Source: Candidatus Methanosuratincola mesotaenarum
GTDB taxonomy: Archaea > Thermoproteota > Methanomethylicia > Methanomethylicales > Methanomethylicaceae
DNA length: 64,000 bases
NCBI GenBank assembly: GCA_038801705.1
Contig: JAULTC010000002.1
Location: 323,127 to 387,126, forward strand
Direction of reading: 5' to 3'
Both the position numbers and the translations under genes were made by a program. The notes beneath the pieces are model-generated. The model was not told where the DNA came from, ran no database searches, and saw nothing but the letters and a program-made list of their open reading frames with translations. Below are positions 6,107 through 42,877 of this stretch, in pieces. Positions within the stretch are counted from its first letter, which is position 1, and every line of letters begins with the position of its first letter.

Positions 6107-6194
6107 GCGGGGGTCGCCAAGTCAGGTTAAAGGCGCAAGGCTTAGGACCTTGTGGCGAAGGCCTTCGTGGGTTCAAATCCCACTCCCCGCACCA
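6107..6194 (+). tRNA. tRNA-Leu(TAG)
   Basis: Anticodon arm CAAGG-CTTAGGA-CCTTG, long variable arm, GGTTCAAATCC, encoded CCA. Confidence 0.95.
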
Positions 6195-6796
6195 ACCCCT
6201 ATTATACAAAACGAGCAAAATTAAGTTTGAGTATTTGGCTCCACTAAGGACGATTTGAGCTCACATTCTTCAATTACTTGATTTAGAATAACTTTACCTT
6301 TGCAGTTCTTCTCGTTGCTTAACACCGTTTTATCAATGTTTTCCTGGCCCCTTCCGTTCTTTCGATTTCCCCTCTCCATCTCTTTTTCCTCCACGCCATC
6401 ATTTCTATCCTCATCGAGATCCTATGCTTGCATACGCTTATTCAGTGTGAGCATCTGCATCAGGTTGAAGCGGACCGGGAGAAGATCTTCTGCATCCTCA
6501 CCCTGGCAACGCCGTCACCAGCATGTGCCCAGCTTCATCAAATGTCCAAGCTCCCCTCACCTTCTATGCTTGAAGCTAAAGAACCTAAAGTTCCATCGAA
6601 TCTAAACGCGCTATCTATCAAAGTAAGATAGTCGAAGCGAATGGGCAACCCTCGAGCTCGGGTATTGGATGATTTAGTCATTGTTAATGGAAAAAAGGAA
6701 AGCAAATTTTAACTTTATCGCTAGGGCCCCGCTGATAGAGAGAGAAGGTAATTCATATAGGTATATTGTTTCCTAAATATGGGGTGACCAATTCTG

Positions 6797-7558
6797 GTGG
6801 AATGGATGCGAGACGATGTAAGAGATTTTGTCAGAACGAGGTACGGTAGGATAGCAAAATCTGGCGGCTCCTGTTGCCCTTCATGCGGGTGCGGGGATTC
6901 CGACGGGAACGCAAGGAGTATGAGCTACTCTGAGGATGACCTGAGGTCGGCGCCTCCTGAGTCAATGATGGGTCTTGGGTGTGGCAATCCCATCGCTTAC
7001 GCGGACCTAACGCCAGGCGAGGTGGTCTTGGATCTCGGATCCGGCGGGGGGATCGACGTTTTCTTGGCTGCAAAGAGAGTCGGCGAGAAGGGCAGGGTAA
7101 TTGGAGTGGACATGACCGATGAGATGCTGGGGCGGGCGAGGGATGCCGCGGTCCAGCACGGTTTCATGAACGTGGAGTTCAGGAAGGGGGAGATCGAATC
7201 CCTCCCTGTTGGTGACTCCTCAGTTGACGTTGTGATCAGCAACTGCGTGATAAACCTCTCGGTGGACAAAGCACGCGTCTTCAGGGAGATCCACCGGGTC
7301 CTCAAGCCAGGTGGAAGGATGGTGGTCTCCGACCTCGTCACAAACGGAGACCTGCCAGAGGACCTGAAGCGGAGCCTTGATGCTTGGGCCAGCTGTATTG
7401 CCGGAGCGGTTGAGAAGGAAGTCTACATCAGTCTAATTAGGGAATCCGGGCTCGAAGACATACGAATCATGGCAGAATCTGGATATTCAGGTGGCGTACC
7501 TGAATTTCTCACTAAGATCAAGAGCATAACAGTCTATGCTGCGAAGCCAAAGGTCTGA
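6797..7558 (+). CDS. arsM: Arsenite S-adenosylmethionine methyltransferase
   Basis: LGCGNP, VLDLGSGGGID, ISNCVINL, WASCIAGA; N-terminal CC motif. Confidence 0.9.
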   Translation: MEWMRDDVRDFVRTRYGRIAKSGGSCCPSCGCGDSDGNARSMSYSEDDLRSAPPESMMGLGCGNPIAYADLTPGEVVLDLGSGGGIDVFLAAKRVGEKGRVIGVDMTDEMLGRARDAAVQHGFMNVEFRKGEIESLPVGDSSVDVVISNCVINLSVDKARVFREIHRVLKPGGRMVVSDLVTNGDLPEDLKRSLDAWASCIAGAVEKEVYISLIRESGLEDIRIMAESGYSGGVPEFLTKIKSITVYAAKPKV

Positions 7559-7729
7559 TCCGATCCTGAAGACCTTACACCTCTCTTTTCGTTTTATCGT
7601 GTTTCAGGCGCGAAATGTGAATTCTTAAAAACTGCCATTGGAAAAGCTTTCTCATCTAGAAACATTTAAACGCTGGAAGGTTAAATCGGATAGCATTGCG
7701 GGGGTTGGGTTTGGGGGGCGAAGGATCTG

Positions 7730-10318
7730 ATGGGGATTCGAGTGGATCCGGAGGAAGTAGTGTGCGTACCGCCTTCCTTAAAGACCGAAGAGCTGGCAGC
7801 CCTCCCTATAGAAGAGATCTTCTCACAGCTTAGAACTGCCCCATCGGGACTCACATTTGCAGAGGCCGAGTCAAGGCTGCAGGTCTGCGGAAGGAACGAG
7901 ATTGTTAGAACGAAGAAGCGATCTGCGGTCATCGAGTTCCTGCTCCACCTCAAGAGCCCCCTGTTGATGATCCTGCTATTCGCTGCCTTGGTCTCGGGCA
8001 TCCTAGGGGAGCTAACCAACACTGGGATCATACTCTCAATTGTCTTCCTGAGCGTCGCGCTCGACTACTACCAGGAGTCAAAGGCTGAAAGTGCAGCCCA
8101 GCTTTTGAAAGAGAAGGTAACCACGACCGCCACAGTGATGAGGGACTCGAAGAAGCAGGAAGTGAGCATTGCCGAGATAGTGCCGGGCGATGTGATCTAC
8201 CTTTCGGCTGGGGACATCATTCCTGCGGACGCGAGGGTCATCACCGCCAAGGATCTCTTCGTCAACCAGTCCGCACTCACTGGGGAGTCGATTCCGGTCG
8301 AGAAGATGCCGGGGCAGGTATCCCTGACTACTACTCCTACGGGCGAGTGGAGCAACCTCCTCTTCATGGGGACCTCCGTCGTAAGCGGCACTGGGACGGC
8401 AGTCGTGGTCAGGACAGGCGCTAGCACCGAGTTCGGGAAGATTGCAAAGAAGCTGGTCGCCAAGGCACCTGAGACCGACTTCGAAAGAGGGCTGAGGAGC
8501 TTCGGATACATGATCATGCAGATTACGTTCGTGCTCGTGATCTTTGTATTCTTCATTAACGCCCTCTTCAAGCGCGACATTCTCGAGTCCCTCCTCTTCT
8601 CGGTGGCGCTGGCAGTGGGGCTCACGCCTGAGCTTCTTCCGATGATACTCTCGGTCAACCTCTCCAACGGTGCCCTCGCAATGTCGAAGCATGGGGTCAT
8701 AGTCAAGCGCCTTTCATCGATCCAGAACTTCGGGACGATGGACGTGCTCTGCACCGATAAGACTGGGACGCTTACCGAGAACAAGATCAAGCTGGTTCTC
8801 CACGTAAACCTCGAGGACGGGGAGGACGAGAGGGTTCTCCTCTTCTCATACCTGAACAGCTACTTTCAGACCGGCCTTAAGAGCCCTTTGGACGAGGCGA
8901 TCCTCGCGTACCGGGATCTAGACATCGGCCGCTACAGCAAAATCGACGAGATCCCCTTCGACTTCATGAGGCGCAGGGTCTCTGTGGTCATGGACTACGA
9001 GGATCAAGGGCTACTGATCACCAAGGGGGCCCCCGAAGCAGTACTCGCAATATGCTCCTACTGCGAATATGAGGATCGGACAATAGACCTGACACCTGAG
9101 CTCGCAGCAATGGTGGAAACCCAGTACAGGCGGCTGAGTGCAGAGGGCTTCAGGGTGCTCGCGGTTGCATACAGGAAGCTGAAGGAGAGGAAGCCTTCTT
9201 ACTCGATAAGCGACGAAGTGGGTATGGTCTTCCTTGGGCTTGTCGCGTTCCTGGATCCTCCCAAGGAAAGCGCCCGCGACTCCCTGAAGCTCCTGAAGAG
9301 TGCTGGCATAGAGCTCAAGATCCTGACTGGTGACAACGAGCTGGTCACCAAAAAGGTCTGCGACGACCTTGAATTCGAGATAAAGGGGCTCGTCTTGGGG
9401 AGTGAGATCTCCGAGCTGCACGACGATGCCCTGTCAAGGGTAGTCGAGGAGGCAAATGTCTTCGCTAGACTCACCCCAGGTCAGAAGGACAGGATAATCG
9501 TAGCACTGAGGCAAAATGGACACGTGGTCGGATTCTTGGGCGACGGCATAAACGATGCCCCTTCGATGCGGACCGCGGATGTCGCTATCTCGGTAGACAA
9601 CGCGGTGGACGTCGCGAAGGAGGCCGCGGACATAGTCCTGCTCAGGAAGAGCCTCACAGTCCTCGAGAAGGGGGTAATCGAGGGGAGGAAAGCGTTCGGG
9701 AACACAATGAAGTACATAATGATGAATGCCAGCTCGAACTTCGGGAACATGTTCAGCGTCGCGGGCGCCTCGCTCTTCCTCCCCTTCCTGCCGATGCTCC
9801 CCACCCAGATCCTCCTTAACAACCTTCTCTATGACTTCTCACAGTTCACGATCACGACCGATCACGTCGATAGGGACTACCTGGACAAGCCGAAGCGCTG
9901 GGACATCTCGTTCATCAAGAAGTTCATGCTTGTATTTGGGCCGGTCAGCTCACTCTTCGATTTCATAACCTTCTTCATAATGCTTTACGTCTTCAAGGCT
10001 GTCGAGCCGCTATTCCAGACAGCGTGGTTCACCGTCTCGCTCTGCACCCAGGTTCTTGTCGTATTTGCGATCAGGACAAGCGTGGTGCCATTCTTCAGGA
10101 GCCGTCCAAGCAAGACGCTGGCAGCAGGGAGCCTAGCAATCGTCGCAGTGGGGCTGTTGATTCCTTTCTTGCCAATAGGTCCACTCTTCAATTTCACCCA
10201 GCCGCCACTCGGGTTCTACGTCTTCCTAGCGCTGATCCTTGGTGCCTATTTCCTGCTCACGGAGTCCGTGAAGGCATGGTTCTACAGGCGGTATCACCTC
10301 GGCATTGCGAGAGAGTAG
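7730..10318 (+). CDS. mgtA: Mg2+-importing P-type ATPase
   Basis: TGES, LTPELLPMI, DKTGTLT, GDGINDAP, SSNFGNMFS (typical of P3B). Confidence 0.92.
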   Translation: MGIRVDPEEVVCVPPSLKTEELAALPIEEIFSQLRTAPSGLTFAEAESRLQVCGRNEIVRTKKRSAVIEFLLHLKSPLLMILLFAALVSGILGELTNTGIILSIVFLSVALDYYQESKAESAAQLLKEKVTTTATVMRDSKKQEVSIAEIVPGDVIYLSAGDIIPADARVITAKDLFVNQSALTGESIPVEKMPGQVSLTTTPTGEWSNLLFMGTSVVSGTGTAVVVRTGASTEFGKIAKKLVAKAPETDFERGLRSFGYMIMQITFVLVIFVFFINALFKRDILESLLFSVALAVGLTPELLPMILSVNLSNGALAMSKHGVIVKRLSSIQNFGTMDVLCTDKTGTLTENKIKLVLHVNLEDGEDERVLLFSYLNSYFQTGLKSPLDEAILAYRDLDIGRYSKIDEIPFDFMRRRVSVVMDYEDQGLLITKGAPEAVLAICSYCEYEDRTIDLTPELAAMVETQYRRLSAEGFRVLAVAYRKLKERKPSYSISDEVGMVFLGLVAFLDPPKESARDSLKLLKSAGIELKILTGDNELVTKKVCDDLEFEIKGLVLGSEISELHDDALSRVVEEANVFARLTPGQKDRIIVALRQNGHVVGFLGDGINDAPSMRTADVAISVDNAVDVAKEAADIVLLRKSLTVLEKGVIEGRKAFGNTMKYIMMNASSNFGNMFSVAGASLFLPFLPMLPTQILLNNLLYDFSQFTITTDHVDRDYLDKPKRWDISFIKKFMLVFGPVSSLFDFITFFIMLYVFKAVEPLFQTAWFTVSLCTQVLVVFAIRTSVVPFFRSRPSKTLAAGSLAIVAVGLLIPFLPIGPLFNFTQPPLGFYVFLALILGAYFLLTESVKAWFYRRYHLGIARE

Positions 10319-10463
10319 TGCCGCCTTGCCTTCCGCCATAGGATCAGGAAGACATAGGTGGCCTTCCAACCATAAAAAGACGAGTGGGGGCGGTTAGACA
10401 CCAGTAATCCAGCCATCTTTTTTTGGGAATGTTAAAATATACTCTCCCCATTAAAATAATCTG

Positions 10464-10904
10464 GTGCATTTTATGAAAGTGCCTGAAAACATCCGTGAGG
10501 CATATTCCAAGGCCCTCAAGTACAGGCGGGCCGTGGTGGGGACCGCCTCAAGGGACGGCGTGCCGAACGCGGTTCCAATAGGCGTCGGGAGATTCGTGGA
10601 TGAGGAGAGACTCGCGCTCGTAGACAACTACTTCCAGAAGACGAGGAAGAACCTTGAGGAGAACCCGTATGCCGCCGTTACGTTCTGGGTATCTGAAGAA
10701 AAGGAAGGCAAGATCGTGACAAACGAGGGTTACCAGCTGAAGGGGAGGGTAGAGATCCAGGAGACTGGAGAACTTTACGAGAGGATAAAGGCAGAGACGA
10801 AGGCAATAAGGGCAGACTTCCCGGTGAAAGCGATAGTCCTGCTGAGGGTAGAGGAGATCTACGACGTGAAGGCTGGACCCACCGCGGGAAAGAGGATACT
10901 GTAA
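10464..10904 (+). CDS. Pyridoxamine 5'-phosphate oxidase-like FMN-binding protein
   Basis: VGTASRDGVPNAVP, DNYFQKTRKNLEENP, GYQLKG. Confidence 0.8.
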   Translation: MHFMKVPENIREAYSKALKYRRAVVGTASRDGVPNAVPIGVGRFVDEERLALVDNYFQKTRKNLEENPYAAVTFWVSEEKEGKIVTNEGYQLKGRVEIQETGELYERIKAETKAIRADFPVKAIVLLRVEEIYDVKAGPTAGKRIL

Positions 10905-35234: not shown

Positions 35235-35666
35235 GAAGTCGTATGCAGCCACATCCACAGCCCACTATTATCCTGTTCTGCTTACGGCCTTCACATCTTC
35301 GGCAGCATAAGACTGTATTAATGGGCTTGTAGTTCCACTGGCAGTGCTGATCGAATATGTTGCACTCATTATCAACGGCCGCACCATCCATACACTCATC
35401 GCCGGCGGACCCACTGCCATCTAAGCTAAACCAGCGCGAACCTGGTAGGCTATCCATCATCTTGGGTGAACTTCAGGCGGGCGCAGTTTCTCGAGATTGT
35501 GAGGATCGCTAAGCAACCTCATTGTTGAAGCAGAACGCCTTCACCTTTCAGGGTAGGATAGTCCACTTACACAGAACTCCTGCAGCTCCTCTCAAAGCTA
35601 TGATTTTTTCCTGCCATTCTTGGAATCCTCTGGACTTTCCTTCAGCGGTTTCGTTGTTGCAACTAT

Positions 35667-37023
35667 GTTTTGTTTTCTCATCCTTTTCGGAGTCATTGAA
35701 ACGACAATTCATTACGCTGAACCTAGAGATGGCATTAGTTTCAGTCTTCTCATCCTTTTCGGAGTCATTGAAACAAGATTATAAAAAATCACGCACCAAG
35801 ATACTTAATGTTTCAGTCTTCTCATCCTTTTCGGAGTCATTGAAACTATTTTTGAGGAAGAGCGGCGATCGGTACCTCTTCCGTTTCAGTCTTCTCATCC
35901 TTTTCGGAGTCATTGAAACCTGGTTGGTTTAGGGGTTATTAAACACCAGACAAGAAGTTTCAGTCTTCTCATCCTTTTCGGAGTCATTGAAACAAGGTGA
36001 CATCTATACCAAGGAAGAGTGGAAGGCAAGTTTCAGTCTTCTCATCCTTTTCGGAGTCATTGAAACTGAAGGTATTGAAAGGGAGGAATGAAAGCCAGTA
36101 TGAGTTTCAGTCTTCTCATCCTTTTCGGAGTCATTGAAACTCAGGACACTCGCCGACGAGCTTGCAAAAGCTCGTGAGTTTCAGTCTTCTCATCCTTTTC
36201 GGAGTCATTGAAACCCCAAGGTCGGCGAGTGGCAGGACTTGGGGATATACAAGTTTCAGTCTTCTCATCCTTTTCGGAGTCATTGAAACTACGTATTCAT
36301 ATAGATACCCCTATAGAAAAATAATAAGTTTCAGTCTTCTCATCCTTTTCGGAGTCATTGAAACCGCCAGCCTTCATGGTGATCGCAATGCGCTGCACTG
36401 GTTTCAGTCTTCTCATCCTTTTCGGAGTCATTGAAACTAAAGAATTATTGTAATAATACCAAGTCGATAATAGTTTCAGTCTTCTCATCCTTTTCGGAGT
36501 CATTGAAACACCCATTCTATGGAATGGGCTGACTTACAATTATGAAGTTTCAGTCTTCTCATCCTTTTCGGAGTCATTGAAACGTTTTCACTTATCGAAC
36601 CAGATGTATCAAGTAAGATGTGTTTCAGTCTTCTCATCCTTTTCGGAGTCATTGAAACTTCCTATTTTTGCAAGTATAAAGCCAGCCCATTATAGTTTCA
36701 GTCTTCTCATCCTTTTCGGAGTCATTGAAACGAGGATCAGTTTTTTACTTCGAAGGACGAGGTGTAGTTTCAGTCTTCTCATCCTTTTCGGAGTCATTGA
36801 AACGCATGCTCGACGCAATGCGCAAAGAAGAGGGTGAAGTTTCAGTCTTCTCATCCTTTTCGGAGTCATTGAAACCCTAAATGCGGGGAATGGGAGTCCA
36901 TCGGAATTTACAAGTTTCAGTCTTCTCATCCTTTTCGGAGTCATTGAAACCTTCTAATCGTTCAGGTATGCTTATGAACAACTCATGTTTCAGTCTTCTC
37001 ATCCTTTTCGGAGTCATTGAAAC
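35667..37023 (-). CRISPR. CRISPR array: 19 repeats (37 nt), 18 spacers (35-38 nt)
   Basis: Repeat on + strand GTTTCAGTCTTCTCATCCTTTTCGGAGTCATTGAAAC; 18 exact copies plus one degenerate copy at 35667-35702. Minus-strand transcription is inferred from the degenerate end and the promoter-like right flank; both orientations end in TGAAAC, so strand is less certain than the array itself. Confidence 0.97.
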
Positions 37024-37125: not shown

Positions 37126-38433
37126 TCACGCCCTCGAGGGCCATTTAATAAATTTCGAACTCTCCAAGAGTTTGTCTAGGTCATTAACCGCCACCTTGGC
37201 CAATGCCCTGACCTTCTTGTCCAGTTTTATGTACGTTCCCTCATCCACGGGCTGCAGACCATGTGCCAATATCGAAAGATTCCTGGTCTTGAGTAACTCC
37301 TTCATCTCATGATCCTCGCAGTACAGGCCACCCAGTTCATCCCCGAACGCATGCAGGAGCTCGTAATCTTTTTTCAAATCTATCTTCATCGGCTCAATAG
37401 ATGGAACCCTGCCCGCCCCCGCAGAGCTTTTTGCCTGTTCAGCCCCTCCCTTTGCCCCCACGGTCTCTTGTGCGGGTATCAGCTGAAGCCCCCACCAGCG
37501 GCTGCGCAGTTCTTCTGGTATCCGCCTTGGGTCGACTGAGGACGTTTCTATGTCGTATTTCTTTTTCAGGCGGTACTGGGCGGTAAGCTCTGCAGTCCTG
37601 TAGAGCCTGGCGACGGCATCGTCGTACTTCTTTTCTTCGGCTCCCCGCCGCTCTGAGTTGTTGATGAGGTCCGCGATCATGTACGGTTCAGGGTATCCCT
37701 TATCCGGGGACTGCGTTTTCTCGAGCTGTTCCATGAGCTTTCCGAGGAACTCCTTATTTTTTTCAGTCCCGGGGATTTTTAAAGTCGACAGCTTTCCATA
37801 AGCCTCTTTGTGGCGGAACTTGTCCCAGAGCGAGTACGCTTCCGCCATGGAGTCCAACGGCTTCATCATGTCTTCCAGGGTTTTGTCCCTGTGCTTGATC
37901 AGGATGCTATTTATTATGGATCTTGCAGCATCGTACTTGGTATTGTTGAAATAGCCCACGGCCATCATGTATTTATGTGCAGCCGCGGCTAAGTACGGCC
38001 TTAGCATGACGATTTGCTCTGTTCCCTGCTGGACCAATGCGGGGCTCCTCTTTCCGGATATGTAGCTCAGCGTGTCGGCTTCAAAGTTGACTCCCAGCGT
38101 GGCCAAGGCGGCTGAAATTGGCTTCGTCCCAGAAGTATAATCTATTGCGAGGTTGTCGTAGCTGTTTCTGAGGGCCTCTATTTTGAGAGAGAGGGATTCG
38201 TATATGCTATTGAAGTTGTCCGGATCATCCACCTCCATTATCTCGTTCTCGTAATCGAGCCCGTCCAGGATAAGGGGCAGCGTGACCTCTCTGCTTTCCT
38301 TGGTAACCACAAAGAAGACCTTTGTGGGGTTGTGCTGGGCAATGCTGAATTTTATCGCTTCTGCAAGGCTAGGCGTCCCGCTTCTGTCTTTACCTGTCCC
38401 GACCGAAATTACGAGCGCTTTAGATGTAGGCAT
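37126..38433 (-). CDS. CARF-HEPN ancillary protein (TIGR02710-like)
   Basis: LVISVGTG, DYTSGTKPISAAL CARF motif, YDDAVARLYR, RNLSILAHG (RX6H HEPN-type). Confidence 0.82.
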   Translation of the reverse strand: MPTSKALVISVGTGKDRSGTPSLAEAIKFSIAQHNPTKVFFVVTKESREVTLPLILDGLDYENEIMEVDDPDNFNSIYESLSLKIEALRNSYDNLAIDYTSGTKPISAALATLGVNFEADTLSYISGKRSPALVQQGTEQIVMLRPYLAAAAHKYMMAVGYFNNTKYDAARSIINSILIKHRDKTLEDMMKPLDSMAEAYSLWDKFRHKEAYGKLSTLKIPGTEKNKEFLGKLMEQLEKTQSPDKGYPEPYMIADLINNSERRGAEEKKYDDAVARLYRTAELTAQYRLKKKYDIETSSVDPRRIPEELRSRWWGLQLIPAQETVGAKGGAEQAKSSAGAGRVPSIEPMKIDLKKDYELLHAFGDELGGLYCEDHEMKELLKTRNLSILAHGLQPVDEGTYIKLDKKVRALAKVAVNDLDKLLESSKFIKWPSRA

Positions 38434-38578: not shown

Positions 38579-39751
38579 TCAGTTCACCCCCAAGGACTTT
38601 ATGCCGAGCTGACCGCAGCCGTGGGGTTTGTAGGCGCCTATGGCATAATACTCCAGCGCGGCAAGCCCGACCGCAAGCTCCCTGCTCCTTGCATTGGAAG
38701 CGAATTCAAAGACAGACCCAGCCGAAAAGGCCGCCTCTATGGCCCTCCGCCTGTCCGATCTAAGCGACCATCCGCTGAACGCCTCGCCTTCTACGGCGTA
38801 TGACTTGAGCGCCATCTCTGGTAACACTGGTTTACCTTCCTTCATTGCCATGGTGTAGGCCCTCCTCGCCCCTTCGAGTAGGGTCTGAGGGTCAAGGAGC
38901 TTTCCGTCGAGGATCATTGGCGAGAACACGTCTACCCTGAAGTGCGTCGTATCGATTTCATTCGCGCGGTCTTCCACCGTCCCCACCTCGACTGGTTCGA
39001 TCTTTAGGTCTTCCACTTCGACCTTGCCGAACCCGCGCGACTTCGACCCTCCGACCCCCTCGTCTGGCAGGGCACGAACGACCACATTACTTATGAGATT
39101 CAGGGTCGCTTCGTCTGCGCCGTATGCGATTGCCTCGAAACGGAACCTCGATCCCGCGGAAATGACCTCTGGAATGTGGATCGTCCCAGCCATGCCGCCC
39201 TGGGCCTGCACTTGGGCAGCCGCGCAAGTCGACCTGTCGACGGAGGTCATCACGACCCTGGAAACCCTGACGGGGGTGCGCTCGATCGACCCACACCGGT
39301 CGCAGCGGAACCCGCGGACAGCCTTCACCGACTCACCGCAGACACCGCACTTCTCGCCCGGCTCGAACGCCTCGAACGCCTTGCGGCACTGCGGGTTCAC
39401 GCAGCGGTAAAGCGACTTGGGCGCGGGCCTGAAGACGCCCCCGCACCCGAGGTGTATTGGATAAGCGTACCTGAAGAAGATCTTTGATGCCCTGCCGAAC
39501 TCCTCGCCGAAGAGTTGGGCGTATCTGCAGTCGTTGAAGTATTCGCACTTCTCGTGATCCGCCAAGGGGGTCTCGCGTTTGCAGACCAGCTTTATCAGCG
39601 AGGTGCCGACAGCGCCACGCATGACCGCGCCGTTAAGGTATGGCCTGGAATGCTTGATGACGCCTGTCCTCGATCCTGTGCCGACGTGAAGGGGGGTCGC
39701 TGCCCTGATCACCCCAACGATCCTATGGCAGTATGGGTCCATCGGCATCAC
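38579..39751 (-). CDS. RAMP Cas7-Cas5 fusion (Csx10-like) with Cys-rich insertion
   Basis: TPLHVG...YLNGAVMRGA; G-loop GVGGSKSRGFG at mid-protein; then a second RAMP (SPMIL, SGWS, AGSVF, IG...HGCG). Confidence 0.75.
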   Translation of the reverse strand: MMPMDPYCHRIVGVIRAATPLHVGTGSRTGVIKHSRPYLNGAVMRGAVGTSLIKLVCKRETPLADHEKCEYFNDCRYAQLFGEEFGRASKIFFRYAYPIHLGCGGVFRPAPKSLYRCVNPQCRKAFEAFEPGEKCGVCGESVKAVRGFRCDRCGSIERTPVRVSRVVMTSVDRSTCAAAQVQAQGGMAGTIHIPEVISAGSRFRFEAIAYGADEATLNLISNVVVRALPDEGVGGSKSRGFGKVEVEDLKIEPVEVGTVEDRANEIDTTHFRVDVFSPMILDGKLLDPQTLLEGARRAYTMAMKEGKPVLPEMALKSYAVEGEAFSGWSLRSDRRRAIEAAFSAGSVFEFASNARSRELAVGLAALEYYAIGAYKPHGCGQLGIKSLGVN

Positions 39752-40458
39752 TTGCTGAGCCAGTCCTTGCCCTGCACTACTTTTTCCTCCTCTTCGGCGA
39801 GGTAGTACTTTGCGGTCCGCTCTTTCACCGCGTCGATCTGGATCCTTGCCTTGCCGAACCCCCTCGACGAAGAGCCGCCTACTGACGAGTCTTCAACCGA
39901 CTTGAGGGCAGCCTTCAGGAGCCGGATCTCTTCGTCGGAAAGGTTCTCGCCGACGATCTCGAGCGCGAATTTTGTGCCTGCAGGTACCGCCTGTATCGTA
40001 TATAGCGCCCCACGGGCGACCGTACCCTTGTTCCTGTCGATCGCTATCCCTGTGCGCTCGAGCAGGGAATCCACCTTTCCGATCGGGAGCGCGTCCCGAA
40101 ACTTCACCTTGCTGGCAACCGAGATCCTTCCAGCCGTGCCAAAGATCCGACAGCAGATGCAAAAGTCCTCCGGATCGCTCTTGCGGCTCCCACACATGTT
40201 GTTGACATCCGGTGGCGTGCAGACCTCCATCTTCTGCCTTGCTATGCGCTCAGCCTCTGCCCTAACGCGGCCTTTTAGGGAGGACCCCGGTATGTACGGC
40301 TTCCCTTCCGGATCGGTTAAAACCGGGAGGTCCGGCTGGCCTATTTCTGCTTCGGACTTGCCAGATCCGATGTGTATCGGGGTCACGGCCTCCAGCGTGC
40401 CAGAGACGATGACCCTCTTTTCCAATTTCTCGAATACCAATTTTTTCACCTCCGTCAT
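39748..40458 (-). CDS. csm3: Cas7 backbone subunit (Csm3-like)
   Basis: TPIHIGSG...PDLPV (catalytic Asp position), PYIPGSSLKG, CICCRIFG, VGGSSSRGFG. Confidence 0.9.
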   Translation of the reverse strand: MTEVKKLVFEKLEKRVIVSGTLEAVTPIHIGSGKSEAEIGQPDLPVLTDPEGKPYIPGSSLKGRVRAEAERIARQKMEVCTPPDVNNMCGSRKSDPEDFCICCRIFGTAGRISVASKVKFRDALPIGKVDSLLERTGIAIDRNKGTVARGALYTIQAVPAGTKFALEIVGENLSDEEIRLLKAALKSVEDSSVGGSSSRGFGKARIQIDAVKERTAKYYLAEEEEKVVQGKDWLSK

Positions 40459-40994
40459 CTTTGAATCCAAACCTTTAGGTTGTAGCCAAACAATTCCTGC
40501 TTCTTCATCAGGGCATCCTTAATGTTCACAGCCAGGTCCCTAGGATTCCCTGCGAAACCTGGCACATGTACGTTAATACAAACTTCGTTCCCTTGGATCT
40601 GAGGGTCAATTTTGCCGCAAGTATACCCTGACTTCTCTACTTCTTTCCTGACCACGGGCTCTGCAATCGACGGTATTCTCATGAGTGGCTCCTTCTCGTA
40701 GTAGTCATAGAGCATGACCGCATACATGAGTATTTTCTGTAGCTTCGGCTTTTGCCCATCGTATTTGCTGATCAGTTCCGAAACATAAGCAAACGTATCC
40801 CTCCCGCTCAAGGTGCCTTCGAGAGTCCTAGAGAACTGCCTCTTCGCATAGGCATCGAGATATTCGATAGGCTTGACCTTAGACAGGCGGTACAGTTCAG
40901 TCAGCTGTTTCCTGCCCATCCCCGACTCCACGGCTTTCTTCGCAAGCGTTTCGCCTTCCATCTTCAGATCTTTCTCTTCAGACATTTGGATCAC
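40455..40994 (-). CDS. Putative Cas11 small subunit with extra C-terminal domain
   Basis: Lies between cas10 and csm3 with overlapping stop and start codons; helical N-terminal about 100 aa (QLTELYRL, YLDAYAKRQFSR, LMYAVMLYDY). Confidence 0.6.
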   Translation of the reverse strand: MIQMSEEKDLKMEGETLAKKAVESGMGRKQLTELYRLSKVKPIEYLDAYAKRQFSRTLEGTLSGRDTFAYVSELISKYDGQKPKLQKILMYAVMLYDYYEKEPLMRIPSIAEPVVRKEVEKSGYTCGKIDPQIQGNEVCINVHVPGFAGNPRDLAVNIKDALMKKQELFGYNLKVWIQR

Positions 40995-42877
40995 CTTGAA
41001 AGATTATACAGTGAAAACGCGTCCTTGATCAGACCGGAGCCGATCGCGGAAAGGATCCGCTCGCCCTCGCTCCAGCTTATAGTGCCCCTCCCCATCCGGC
41101 TTTTCAGGATGGCTTCTGCCATGACCGGGTTTTTAGCGTTGACCGTAGCGATGTTCCTGAGCTGGCCCGAGGCGACGCCGCCCTTCTCCATCGAGGCAGC
41201 CAAATCGATCAGTTCCTTCAGTTCGTCCCAGCTCCTCGAATCGAATCTGTAGAGGCTTTCCTCGTCTGCGGACGTGCTACCAAGGATCGCGAAAGCAACC
41301 CTGTTCTTCCCCTCTTCCTTTGCCCTCTGGAGGAGCCTAGCGGAAGATTCAAGGCCTACGTAGATTGGGAGCTGATACTGAAACATAGAGACGCCCGCAG
41401 ACATCGTGCACGCGCCCGCCGTAGCCTCGTTGAACTTATGCGCGACCTCCATAGCTGTCTCGAGGGCTACTTGGCCCGGGACCAAGGCGAGCAGGTCGTC
41501 CCCACCGGCAAAGACTATGCTGTTCGAAGTCGCACGGCGCGAGATCACCGGTCCGAATTCCTGTTCGCAGGTCCTGTGTATCAGACCGCTGACGGTCGAG
41601 ACCCTCGAAGGCGTGCTCGCTTTCCCAAGTTCCTTAAAGACCTTCCCCGCAAAGACCTGCCCTATACGGTCACCGTCTGCCCTGATGCAGCCCACGAGGT
41701 TGTTCTTGTCTTTGAGGTCGTCCAGCCAGATCCCTTTCCCCTTCTGCCGCATTTCCCAGCAGACGTCGCATAGCCTTTCAGGCCTGGGCGAAGCGTCGAT
41801 CGGCAGTATCCTTAGGTCGTCGTCCTTCGAAGCTTGGCGGGACCCGCAGACGTCGCAGGCTTCAGCCCCCTCAGGCACATCGATCCTCGGCAGGTGGATC
41901 CTCTTCCCCTTCTCTATGCGCATATTTGCCATCGCCTTTTCCCAGAGGCTGCCAAAGTTGCGCATGAAGGCATTCCCATCCGCTGTGATGCTGGCGACGG
42001 TCATTGTTGCCCTGCCCGAGGTGGCTTCCTCGAAGCTCTGCTTCATGGTTTCCATAACCTCTTCTTTGCGCGATGTAGGCGAAAGTACGAGGGCACTGCC
42101 CCCCGCAGCGAACAGGACGCACTCTGGCCCCAGCTTCTCTGCCATGGCGTTTCTAACTTCTTCCGTTGCATATTTGATGAGCGCGCTCCTTGAATTCAGG
42201 TCGGGGAGGCGCTTTGATTCATTGATGAACCCAGAGATCCGGTCCGCATCCCCGCTAATGAGGGCAAAATTATAACAGCTCAAGTTTGTGCCGTTCGACC
42301 CATCAAGGTAAATGCAGGTCGAAAAAGCTGCAGTCAGTTTGAGATGATCCCACAGCGAAACATCGTTATTCGGCTTTCTGGTGTCCGCAGGAACTTTGTG
42401 GAGCCTGGATTTCCTGAGCGCCTCAAAGACCTTGGTGTAGCAACCCTTCGGATCTTTCCTGAGCTCGCCCTCAAGACTCCCAAGGCTAGCGGCTATCTCC
42501 TGGGAAATATAAGCCAAATCCCGTGCTTCGAGTTTTCCGGCGGTCTTGTCCTTAGAGAGTATGTGAGCCAACTCTATAGGCGGGGTCGGAAGCGGGGTGC
42601 CGGGCATATGGGCTTCTGACCTGTCAGATCCGGCTGCAATGTTGTCCGCTAGAGCGATTATCCACTGCAAACGGTTCTCCGGGTGATACATTTCAGGATA
42701 AGAAGGCCCCGTGTGGTGCTTGCACGCATTTTCAGCTATTTCTTCACCGAGGCACCTCTTGACGAATGATCGGGTGTATGAAACATGCTTTGACCACCCT
42801 TCTCTGTTGGCCCAGCACTCCAGCTTGCCTATATCGTGCAGCAGGGCTGAAAGCCGGACCGTTTCAAGCTCGCTCAT
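40991..42877 (-). CDS. cas10: Cas10 (HD nuclease plus Palm/cyclase), compact 628 aa
   Basis: LLHDIGK, ADNIAAGSDR, VSLWDHLK, FAAGGS, CDVC/CDVC Zn finger, ADGD, FAGGDDLL. Confidence 0.92.
   Translation of the reverse strand: MSELETVRLSALLHDIGKLECWANREGWSKHVSYTRSFVKRCLGEEIAENACKHHTGPSYPEMYHPENRLQWIIALADNIAAGSDRSEAHMPGTPLPTPPIELAHILSKDKTAGKLEARDLAYISQEIAASLGSLEGELRKDPKGCYTKVFEALRKSRLHKVPADTRKPNNDVSLWDHLKLTAAFSTCIYLDGSNGTNLSCYNFALISGDADRISGFINESKRLPDLNSRSALIKYATEEVRNAMAEKLGPECVLFAAGGSALVLSPTSRKEEVMETMKQSFEEATSGRATMTVASITADGNAFMRNFGSLWEKAMANMRIEKGKRIHLPRIDVPEGAEACDVCGSRQASKDDDLRILPIDASPRPERLCDVCWEMRQKGKGIWLDDLKDKNNLVGCIRADGDRIGQVFAGKVFKELGKASTPSRVSTVSGLIHRTCEQEFGPVISRRATSNSIVFAGGDDLLALVPGQVALETAMEVAHKFNEATAGACTMSAGVSMFQYQLPIYVGLESSARLLQRAKEEGKNRVAFAILGSTSADEESLYRFDSRSWDELKELIDLAASMEKGGVASGQLRNIATVNAKNPVMAEAILKSRMGRGTISWSEGERILSAIGSGLIKDAFSLYNLSR

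Follow-up and report, generated by a model that had tools for sequence, protein, structure and literature searches.

Type III CRISPR effectors normally need at least five different subunits. As a rule, complexes of the III-D type have several paralogues of Cas7 and often also Csx19, a beta-rich subunit that their assembly requires (PMC11026444; PMC9945777); in III-Dv Csx19 is essential for that assembly (PMC11026444). The C-terminus of Cas10 resembles the canonical small subunits (PMC11026444; PMC12669027), and the nuclease fused to Cas11 in I-E3 is a precedent for additions to a small subunit (PMC12669027). The locus described here is a type III module in a 64,000-nucleotide stretch of the genome of Candidatus Methanosuratincola mesotaenarum (contig JAULTC010000002.1, forward-strand positions 323,127 to 387,126); this whole stretch is called the window, and coordinates refer to it unless a related locus is named. 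The source genome comprises 1.46 Mb and is 93% complete. Between cas10 and cas7 the module encodes a small protein, named here Cas11-CTD (Cas11 with a C-terminal domain). There is good support for regarding this protein as the Cas11 subunit of a minimal type III module; its C-terminal alpha/beta domain is a family-specific addition to Cas11, and both the domain and the family are undescribed in the libraries and literature searched. What is new here is a Cas11 with a novel conserved domain, in an unclassified minimal III-D-like module.

Gene, product and predicted structure

The gene, its putative ribosome-binding motif and the two parts of its product are located as follows.

40455..40985, minus strand: cas11-CTD gene, 176 amino acids (aa) from ATG 40985; the alternative GTG at 40994 gives 179 aa
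40991..40996, minus strand: AGGTGA, Shine-Dalgarno-like motif read from the sequence, 5 nt 5' of the ATG, overlapping the cas10 stop
40686..40985, minus strand: N-terminal Cas11 domain, residues 1-100, five-helix bundle (HHalign, Foldseek, PADLOC)
40458..40685, minus strand: C-terminal alpha-beta-beta-alpha-beta domain, residues 101-176 (AlphaFold2, Foldseek, alignment)

The program-made list of open reading frames (ORFs) gives a GTG-start frame on the minus strand, 40455-40994, of 179 aa. Because all homologues begin with MSEEK and the AGGTGA motif stands 5 nt upstream of ATG 40985, the true product is most likely the 176-aa protein encoded by 40455-40985. The TGA stop of cas11-CTD (40455-40457) overlaps the ATG of cas7 as ATGA, and 5 nt separate the cas10 stop (40991-40993) from the cas11-CTD ATG downstream of it; the genes are thus tightly coupled and form one operon.

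The original prediction, made from the letters of the sequence alone, described about 100 helical residues followed by an alpha-beta-beta-alpha-beta pattern, and the C-terminal peptide that it quoted is identical to the translation. An AlphaFold2 (AF2) model built on a 64-sequence alignment (full-length pLDDT 92.1, pTM 0.73) confirms this layout, with residues 1-100 forming a five-helix bundle (helices 3-20, 25-37, 40-55, 62-74 and 79-118) and residues 101-176 the alpha/beta domain, in which DSSP assigns strands 126-131 and 134-140, helix 148-160 and strand 169-175. The fifth helix of the bundle runs on as the first helix of the alpha/beta domain. In 15 of 97 relatives a variable linker, at most 25 residues long, is inserted at the junction, which indicates that the halves are separable domains, and the N-terminal domain modelled by AF2 alone again gives five helices (pLDDT 94.7, pTM 0.85).

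The N-terminal domain as a Cas11 homologue

The N-terminal domain carries the conserved motifs GE-LA--AV, KQL--(I/L)Y, (F/Y)VEA--(K/Q)RQ-GR and LMYA-MLYDY. Searched directly against Pfam, NCBIfam, PADLOC and, by phmmer, the PDB, the window protein returns nothing meaningful; its homology was detected by comparing profiles. A 97-sequence profile of the N-terminal domain aligned by HHalign with 11 cognate Cas10 proteins gives a probability of 95.9% (E 5e-9, 71 columns), where residues 13-97 map to Cas10 558-628, the extreme C-terminal domain D4; against D4 alone the probability is 97.2% (E 4e-11). The observed scores of 62-63 compare with 17.3+/-4.2 for 100 block-shuffled controls (maximum 33.3; z about 10) and with 15.8 for reversed D4. 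D4 (residues ~558-628, window 40991-41203) comprises only ~70 residues in a short, 628-aa Cas10, yet it is similar in sequence to the free Cas11. This similarity suggests a duplication or split relationship in this lineage.

The relationship to Csm2 is more remote. Against a 91-sequence alignment of PF03750 Csm2 the N-terminal profile scores 26.7 (E 6e-4), a value that one of 100 shuffled controls reaches (empirical p about 0.01), and at low mact the alignment is collinear across all five helices. This longer match required that divergent representatives be added to the N-terminal profile; a shallow alignment (Neff 2.6) compared with 6 or 91 Csm2 sequences finds the QLR helix only (E 0.016-0.03). 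D4 itself is about as distant from Csm2 (E 1.2e-3) as the N-terminal domain is, so in this lineage Cas11 and Cas10 D4 are each other's nearer relatives, with canonical Csm2 more distant from both. A hidden Markov model (HMM) of the N-terminal domain finds no match in nine genomes, six of which carry PF03750 Csm2 above the family cut-off; kinship with Csm2 is therefore visible only profile to profile.

Other comparisons point in the same direction. When 64 members of the family were searched individually against PADLOC, Csm2 small-subunit models were matched most often, all below threshold (best E about 1e-3), and the top model, PDLC01503 (III-D Csm2), was matched by eight members. In one of them, P0107, residues 17-96 align with positions 17-97 of this 116-position model, which shows that the III-D Csm2 model spans the N-terminal domain and ends there. 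The best PDB profile hit is Thermotoga maritima Csm2 (5an6, E 0.19-0.38). The top Foldseek rows for the N-terminal domain are chain A (Csm1/Cas10) of Streptococcus thermophilus Csm structures (6ifk, 9no4, 6ify, 6ifu and 6ifn), with 24-25% identity over ~75 columns at a root-mean-square deviation (rmsd) of ~4 A; with E about 1 these rows are non-significant alone. Residues 65-162 of another member, P0098, give a weak PADLOC match (E 0.017) to Csx21, which is associated with types III-A and III-D; it occurs in this single member and is probably noise.

Two earlier expectations about this half of the protein can now be assessed. First, the N-terminal ~100 residues do have a Cas11 fold and are homologous to Cas11, as Cas10 D4, the Csm2 profiles, PADLOC and Foldseek all indicate. 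Second, Csm2 proteins had been expected to be usually shorter, which holds only in part: the matching III-D model has 116 positions, but the PF03750 proteins retrieved span 92-201 aa, mostly about 135-165.

The C-terminal alpha/beta domain

For the window protein or the 64 members, no sequence relative of the C-terminal domain was found in Pfam, NCBIfam, PADLOC or the PDB. Since the library searches are null and the III-D Csm2 model ends with the N-terminal domain, the original prediction was right to place the last ~75 residues outside any described Cas11 family. The domain is less conserved than its partner, with a mean column entropy of 2.34 versus 1.78 and 6 of 71 low-entropy columns versus 22 of 94. 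Strong conservation falls mostly on a hydrophobic core (V139, L151, I155, W173 and I174), and in addition on Gly120 and a loop F144-x-G146-(N/D)-P148-(K/R/G) at the N-terminus of the domain's second helix. The domain is basic: its net charge averages +4.3, Lys or Arg predominates at positions 113, 140, 149 and 171, and in many members the last residues are R or RR. The domain alignment contains no conserved His, Cys, acidic cluster or catalytic-type set.

Structure searches return non-significant fold matches only. The cytoplasmic domains of YiiP/ZnT and MamM are found by Foldseek at E 0.009-0.15 (TM score 0.43-0.51 on an 80-residue target), OsmC is among the equally good non-significant matches, the KH-like domain of Der/EngA (6xrs) has E 0.15 with an rmsd of 2.9 A over 76 columns, and in BFVD, where nothing is significant, a phage S3 protein has E 0.43 with an rmsd of 3.2 A over 71 columns. 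The full-length YiiP/ZnT matches were rejected as an artefact of a shared architecture of helices plus an alpha/beta domain (E>=0.009, rmsd >=10 A). The CDF cytoplasmic domain (ZT_dimer) was also rejected: its topology agrees, but the family has neither the conserved His/Asp/Cys nor a Pfam match.

The earlier suggestion of a KH/RbfA-like domain does not hold as an assignment. Type II KH domains have the order alpha-beta-beta-alpha-alpha-beta, with the GXXG loop between two helices. The present domain is one helix short, and at the GXXG site the window protein has G-N-P-K, with G at the fourth position in 13 of 97 members; membership of the type II KH/RbfA fold was rejected, as both topology and the GXXG loop disagree. 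The resemblance is topological only (E 0.15-0.43), CDF and OsmC domains match equally well, and KH/RbfA is a possible analogy rather than a membership.

Operon and genomic context

The minus-strand operon has the order cas10, cas11-CTD, cas7, cas5, followed by a CARF-HEPN gene and a CRISPR array of 19 repeats.

40991..42877, minus strand: cas10, 628 aa; HD motif, GGDD in palm2, and at the C-terminus a short D4 (~558-628), paralogous to the N-terminal domain of Cas11-CTD; TIGR02578, 230 bits
39748..40458, minus strand: cas7 (Csx7/Csm3-type RAMP), TIGR02581, 148 bits; the sole Cas7-type gene of the operon
38579..39751, minus strand: cas5 (Csx10-like, III-D type), with a Cys-rich insertion
37126..38433, minus strand: CARF-HEPN effector (TIGR02710 / Csm6-Csx1 family), from library profile matches
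35666..37023, strand unassigned: CRISPR array, 19 copies of the 37-nt repeat GTTTCAGTCTTCTCATCCTTTTCGGAGTCATTGAAAC, spacers 35-38 nt

The Cas5 matches the PADLOC model Cas5_IIId end to end (E 8e-16) and TIGR02674 with 50 bits, below the 177-bit cut-off. In terms of subtype, the Csx10-like Cas5 is a III-D trait, but there is a single Cas7 gene and no Csx19 match. In the whole genome only two PF03787 RAMP genes are found, namely the cas7 and cas5 of this operon; a third RAMP of the Csm5, Cmr1 or Cmr6 type is present neither in the operon nor in the genome, and the claim that a Csm5-type subunit is missing is borne out; that the C-terminal domain may make up for this loss is a plausible idea. The operon contains no other Cas11 candidate. 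PF03750 Csm2 has no match and Cas1 (PF01867) is not found anywhere in the 93%-complete genome, and cas6, cas1 and cas2 are absent from the 64-kb window.

A type I locus lies on another contig (C14, ~6129-10861, locus L028) and encodes a Cas3 helicase of 537 aa, a Cas3 HD protein of 239 aa and a Cas6 of 256 aa, along with two unannotated ORFs of 173 and 386 aa. This Cas6 matches PF10040 (E 9e-16 to 2e-15) and can presumably serve the window array in trans.

Distribution of the family and conserved gene order

Whereas a search with one sequence finds five relatives only, a profile search finds at least 125 clusters at 90% identity. The 120 clusters listed have lengths of 133-192 aa, mostly 170-180; among them none contains a Pfam domain and all source names given are 'hypothetical protein'. 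HMMER, run exhaustively over 1.84 billion representatives, gives 42 at 50% identity, of which the full-length ones (165-205 aa) align end to end with both halves kept. Full-length conservation of both halves in at least 125 clusters and 42 representatives means that the two-domain feature is not due to chance.

Where hosts are named, they are thermophilic Thermoproteota, recorded as Bathyarchaeia, Methanomethylicaceae, Nitrososphaerota (including Terraquivivens) and Norongarragalinales. Among 401 genomes sampled from the phylum, 9 carry the family, which was not found in the other eight sampled genomes of the host genus; this patchy spread is that of a mobile defence module. The gene order is fixed: each of the 15 related loci has cas10 directly before the family gene, and the order cas10, family gene, cas7, cas5 is seen in all 13 that are long enough to show it. 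The operons of the related loci contain no further RAMP or small gene, and neither a Csm5/Cmr1-type cap nor Csx19. Cas11-CTD is the least conserved of the four proteins, with 35-47% identity versus 63-79% for Cas7, as is typical of small subunits.

Among the relatives no intact natural version without the C-terminal domain was found. The 114-aa representative P0151 is a frameshifted copy: in its locus, from a metagenomic relative (L027, 3782-5040), frameshifts break the C-terminal domain into pieces that can still be read in three frames, and the gene calls give a 114-aa Cas11 and an over-long Cas7 of 277 aa. The frameshifts reflect either an assembly error or a decaying copy. Another representative, P0156, sits on a contig of 688 nt.

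Two further genes recur next to the related operons.

L002 788-1441, L003 127-780, L005 566-1213, L017 5402-6052, L018 1773-2456, L019 5400-6038 and L023 2370-3020, directly upstream of cas10: RNase H-fold / DEDD-like exonuclease (PF13482, E 4e-10), ~215-230 aa
L015 5057-5956, L017 4584-5288, L019 4589-5281 and L025 5161-5880, minus strand: divergently transcribed conserved protein with a weak winged helix-turn-helix match (MarR/ArsR-like)

The exonuclease may be an accessory nuclease of the type III variant; its gene is absent from the window. The divergently transcribed protein has a C-terminal 'MDCTSATKP' motif resembling CARF domains, and it is likely a Csa3-like operon regulator responsive to cyclic oligoadenylate.

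Possible functions of the C-terminal domain

The reading that we favour, at slightly better than an even chance, is that Cas11-CTD is the Cas11 of a four-gene type III effector (Cas10, Cas11-CTD, one Cas7 and a Csx10-like Cas5) in which the C-terminal domain acts as a clamp. By analogy with known complexes, copies of the N-terminal domain would stack from Cas10 D4 along the Cas7 backbone, forming the minor filament and lining the target-RNA channel. The basic C-terminal domain would then clamp the RNA backbone, a neighbouring subunit (the Cas7 thumb or the next Cas11), or both; this is the weakest step and a conjectural one. In a complex with neither a dedicated cap nor base-stabilizing subunits, such a clamp could stabilize the minor filament, the open 3' end included. 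For a basic domain in loci that have neither the several Cas7 paralogues nor the Csx19 of III-D-type complexes, this is the most parsimonious guess. In its favour were counted the charge, the conserved basic positions, the R or RR tails, conservation that falls mostly on the hydrophobic core, and the absence of Csx19.

Four points weigh against it. The window protein has no Pfam or NCBIfam match at E<=1, and the curated cut-offs for Csm2/Cmr5 (PF03750, PF09701 and NCBIfam) are not reached. HHalign detects no similarity between the C-terminal domain and Cas10, Cas7, Cas5, Csm2 or the N-terminal domain. The fold matches of the C-terminal domain are all non-significant and belong to several unrelated families (best E 0.009-0.15). 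Finally, every copy of Cas11 would bear the domain, an arrangement that suits a clamp running along the filament more than one cap at its end.

A possible, although less probable, alternative is that the C-terminal domain is a pure protein-protein adaptor without RNA contact, serving either head-to-tail polymerization of Cas11 or the docking of the CARF-HEPN nuclease or the PF13482 exonuclease. On the one hand, the conserved positions lie mostly in the hydrophobic core while the surface evolves fast, the open three-stranded sheet could pair with a strand of a partner, Csa5 small subunits multimerize into threads and have a weakly conserved beta insertion (PMC3737334), and at least six related loci have the exonuclease gene directly in front of cas10. 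On the other hand, the domain is consistently basic, with conserved Lys/Arg and an Arg tail, and it is intact in the window, where the exonuclease gene is absent.

The clamp proposal also has a bolder form, which we regard as rather doubtful. Here the C-terminal domain would replace both the 3' cap RAMP (Csm5/Cmr1/Cmr6) and the Csx19-type stabilizer, so enabling a signalling-competent effector of four proteins; the module would then be an unclassified minimal type III variant of thermophilic archaea, its Cas11 born from the C-terminus of the cognate Cas10.

That the domain is a KH-type, RbfA/Era-like binder of single-stranded RNA that caps the 3' end of the CRISPR RNA (crRNA) and directly replaces Csm5/Cmr1 seems quite unlikely. 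The Foldseek rows for Der/EngA 6xrs and phage S3 argue for it, as do the lack of a cap RAMP in operon and genome and the G-N-P-(K/R/G) loop at the N-terminus of the second helix, which is the position of the KH GXXG; the same rows are non-significant (E 0.15-0.43), the fold is one helix short of type II KH, GXXG occurs in only 13 of 97 members, Pfam gives no KH or RbfA match, CDF-CTD and OsmC folds do equally well, and a domain carried by each Cas11 copy does not make a unique cap.

A Cas6-like role of the domain in repeat binding or processing of the crRNA precursor is very improbable. The window lacks cas6, cas1 and cas2, and the domain has a truncated ferredoxin-like look, as in the halves of RAMP/Cas6 proteins, but a conserved His/Tyr/Lys catalytic set is missing from it, HHalign detects no resemblance to RAMPs, and the type I locus on the other contig encodes a Cas6, so that processing is possible in trans; replacement of Cas6 was therefore rejected for this genome. 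That the protein is an unrelated accessory between cas10 and cas7 and not a small subunit is hardly credible: curated Cas11 models stay below threshold and the N-terminal HMM is empty in nine genomes, six of them Csm2-bearing, but the Cas10 D4 homology (96-97%), the five-helix fold, the collinear Csm2 motifs, the recurrent sub-threshold Csm2 matches, the fixed operon position, the translational coupling and the lack of another Cas11 candidate in the operon all argue against it.

Significance

Built from Cas10, a single Cas7, a single Cas5 and a Cas11 of two domains, the module would rank among the simplest multi-subunit type III machines with HD, cyclase and CARF-HEPN signalling, a simplicity that would benefit reconstitution, structural studies and applications in RNA sensing. 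The sequence link between Cas11 and the C-terminus of its own Cas10 directly supports a shared origin of small subunits and the large-subunit C-terminus. In addition, the family, with its at least 125 clusters, could join the Cas11 profile sets, after which such loci would no longer be scored as 'Cas11 missing'.

Comparison with known systems

Csm2/Cas11 of types III-A and III-D (PF03750; PDLC01503 'Csm2, CAS-III-D, effector_SS') is likewise a ~100-residue five-helix bundle whose gene adjoins cas10 and cas7, and it shares with Cas11-CTD a collinear QLR-type helix 2, an (A/R)(Y/Q)xGR helix 3 and an aromatic-rich last helix. Cas11-CTD differs in that it falls below all curated thresholds, is nearer to its own Cas10 D4 and has the extra 75-residue alpha/beta domain. 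D4 of Cas10 (Csm1/Cmr2), the Cas11-like start of the minor filament, is homologous at the profile level over 71 columns; unlike D4, Cas11-CTD is free-standing and has the added C-terminal domain.

For the C-terminal domain itself the likenesses concern shape. The type II KH-like domains (the C-terminal domain of Der/EngA, and S3) are two-layer alpha/beta sandwiches of similar size, whereas the domain of Cas11-CTD has no GXXG motif and lacks the second helix of the KH core, and the matches are non-significant. The CDF cytoplasmic domains (YiiP and MamM) have exactly the same alpha-beta-beta-alpha-beta order; in contrast to them, Cas11-CTD shows no conserved metal ligands and no Pfam match, and here too the matches are non-significant. 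Csa5, the small subunit of type I-A, sets a precedent for small subunits with non-helical additions (PMC3737334), but in this type I protein the beta element is inserted and does not form a C-terminal domain, and no match to Cas11-CTD in sequence or fold was found.

With respect to function, Csx19 can also be compared. The sole sequence basis for this comparison is TIGR03984, which we take to be the Csx19 model and which has no match in the window protein, the 64 relatives, the 401 genomes or the controls; nor is Csx19 among the top 50 Foldseek matches of Cas11-CTD. Csx19 differs in being a separate, single-copy subunit between Cas5 and Cas10. It is alike in being a small, beta-containing part of complexes with a Csx10-type Cas5, where it touches crRNA and assembly depends on it. 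Since the Csx19 gene is missing here, the C-terminal domain of Cas11-CTD could be its functional stand-in.

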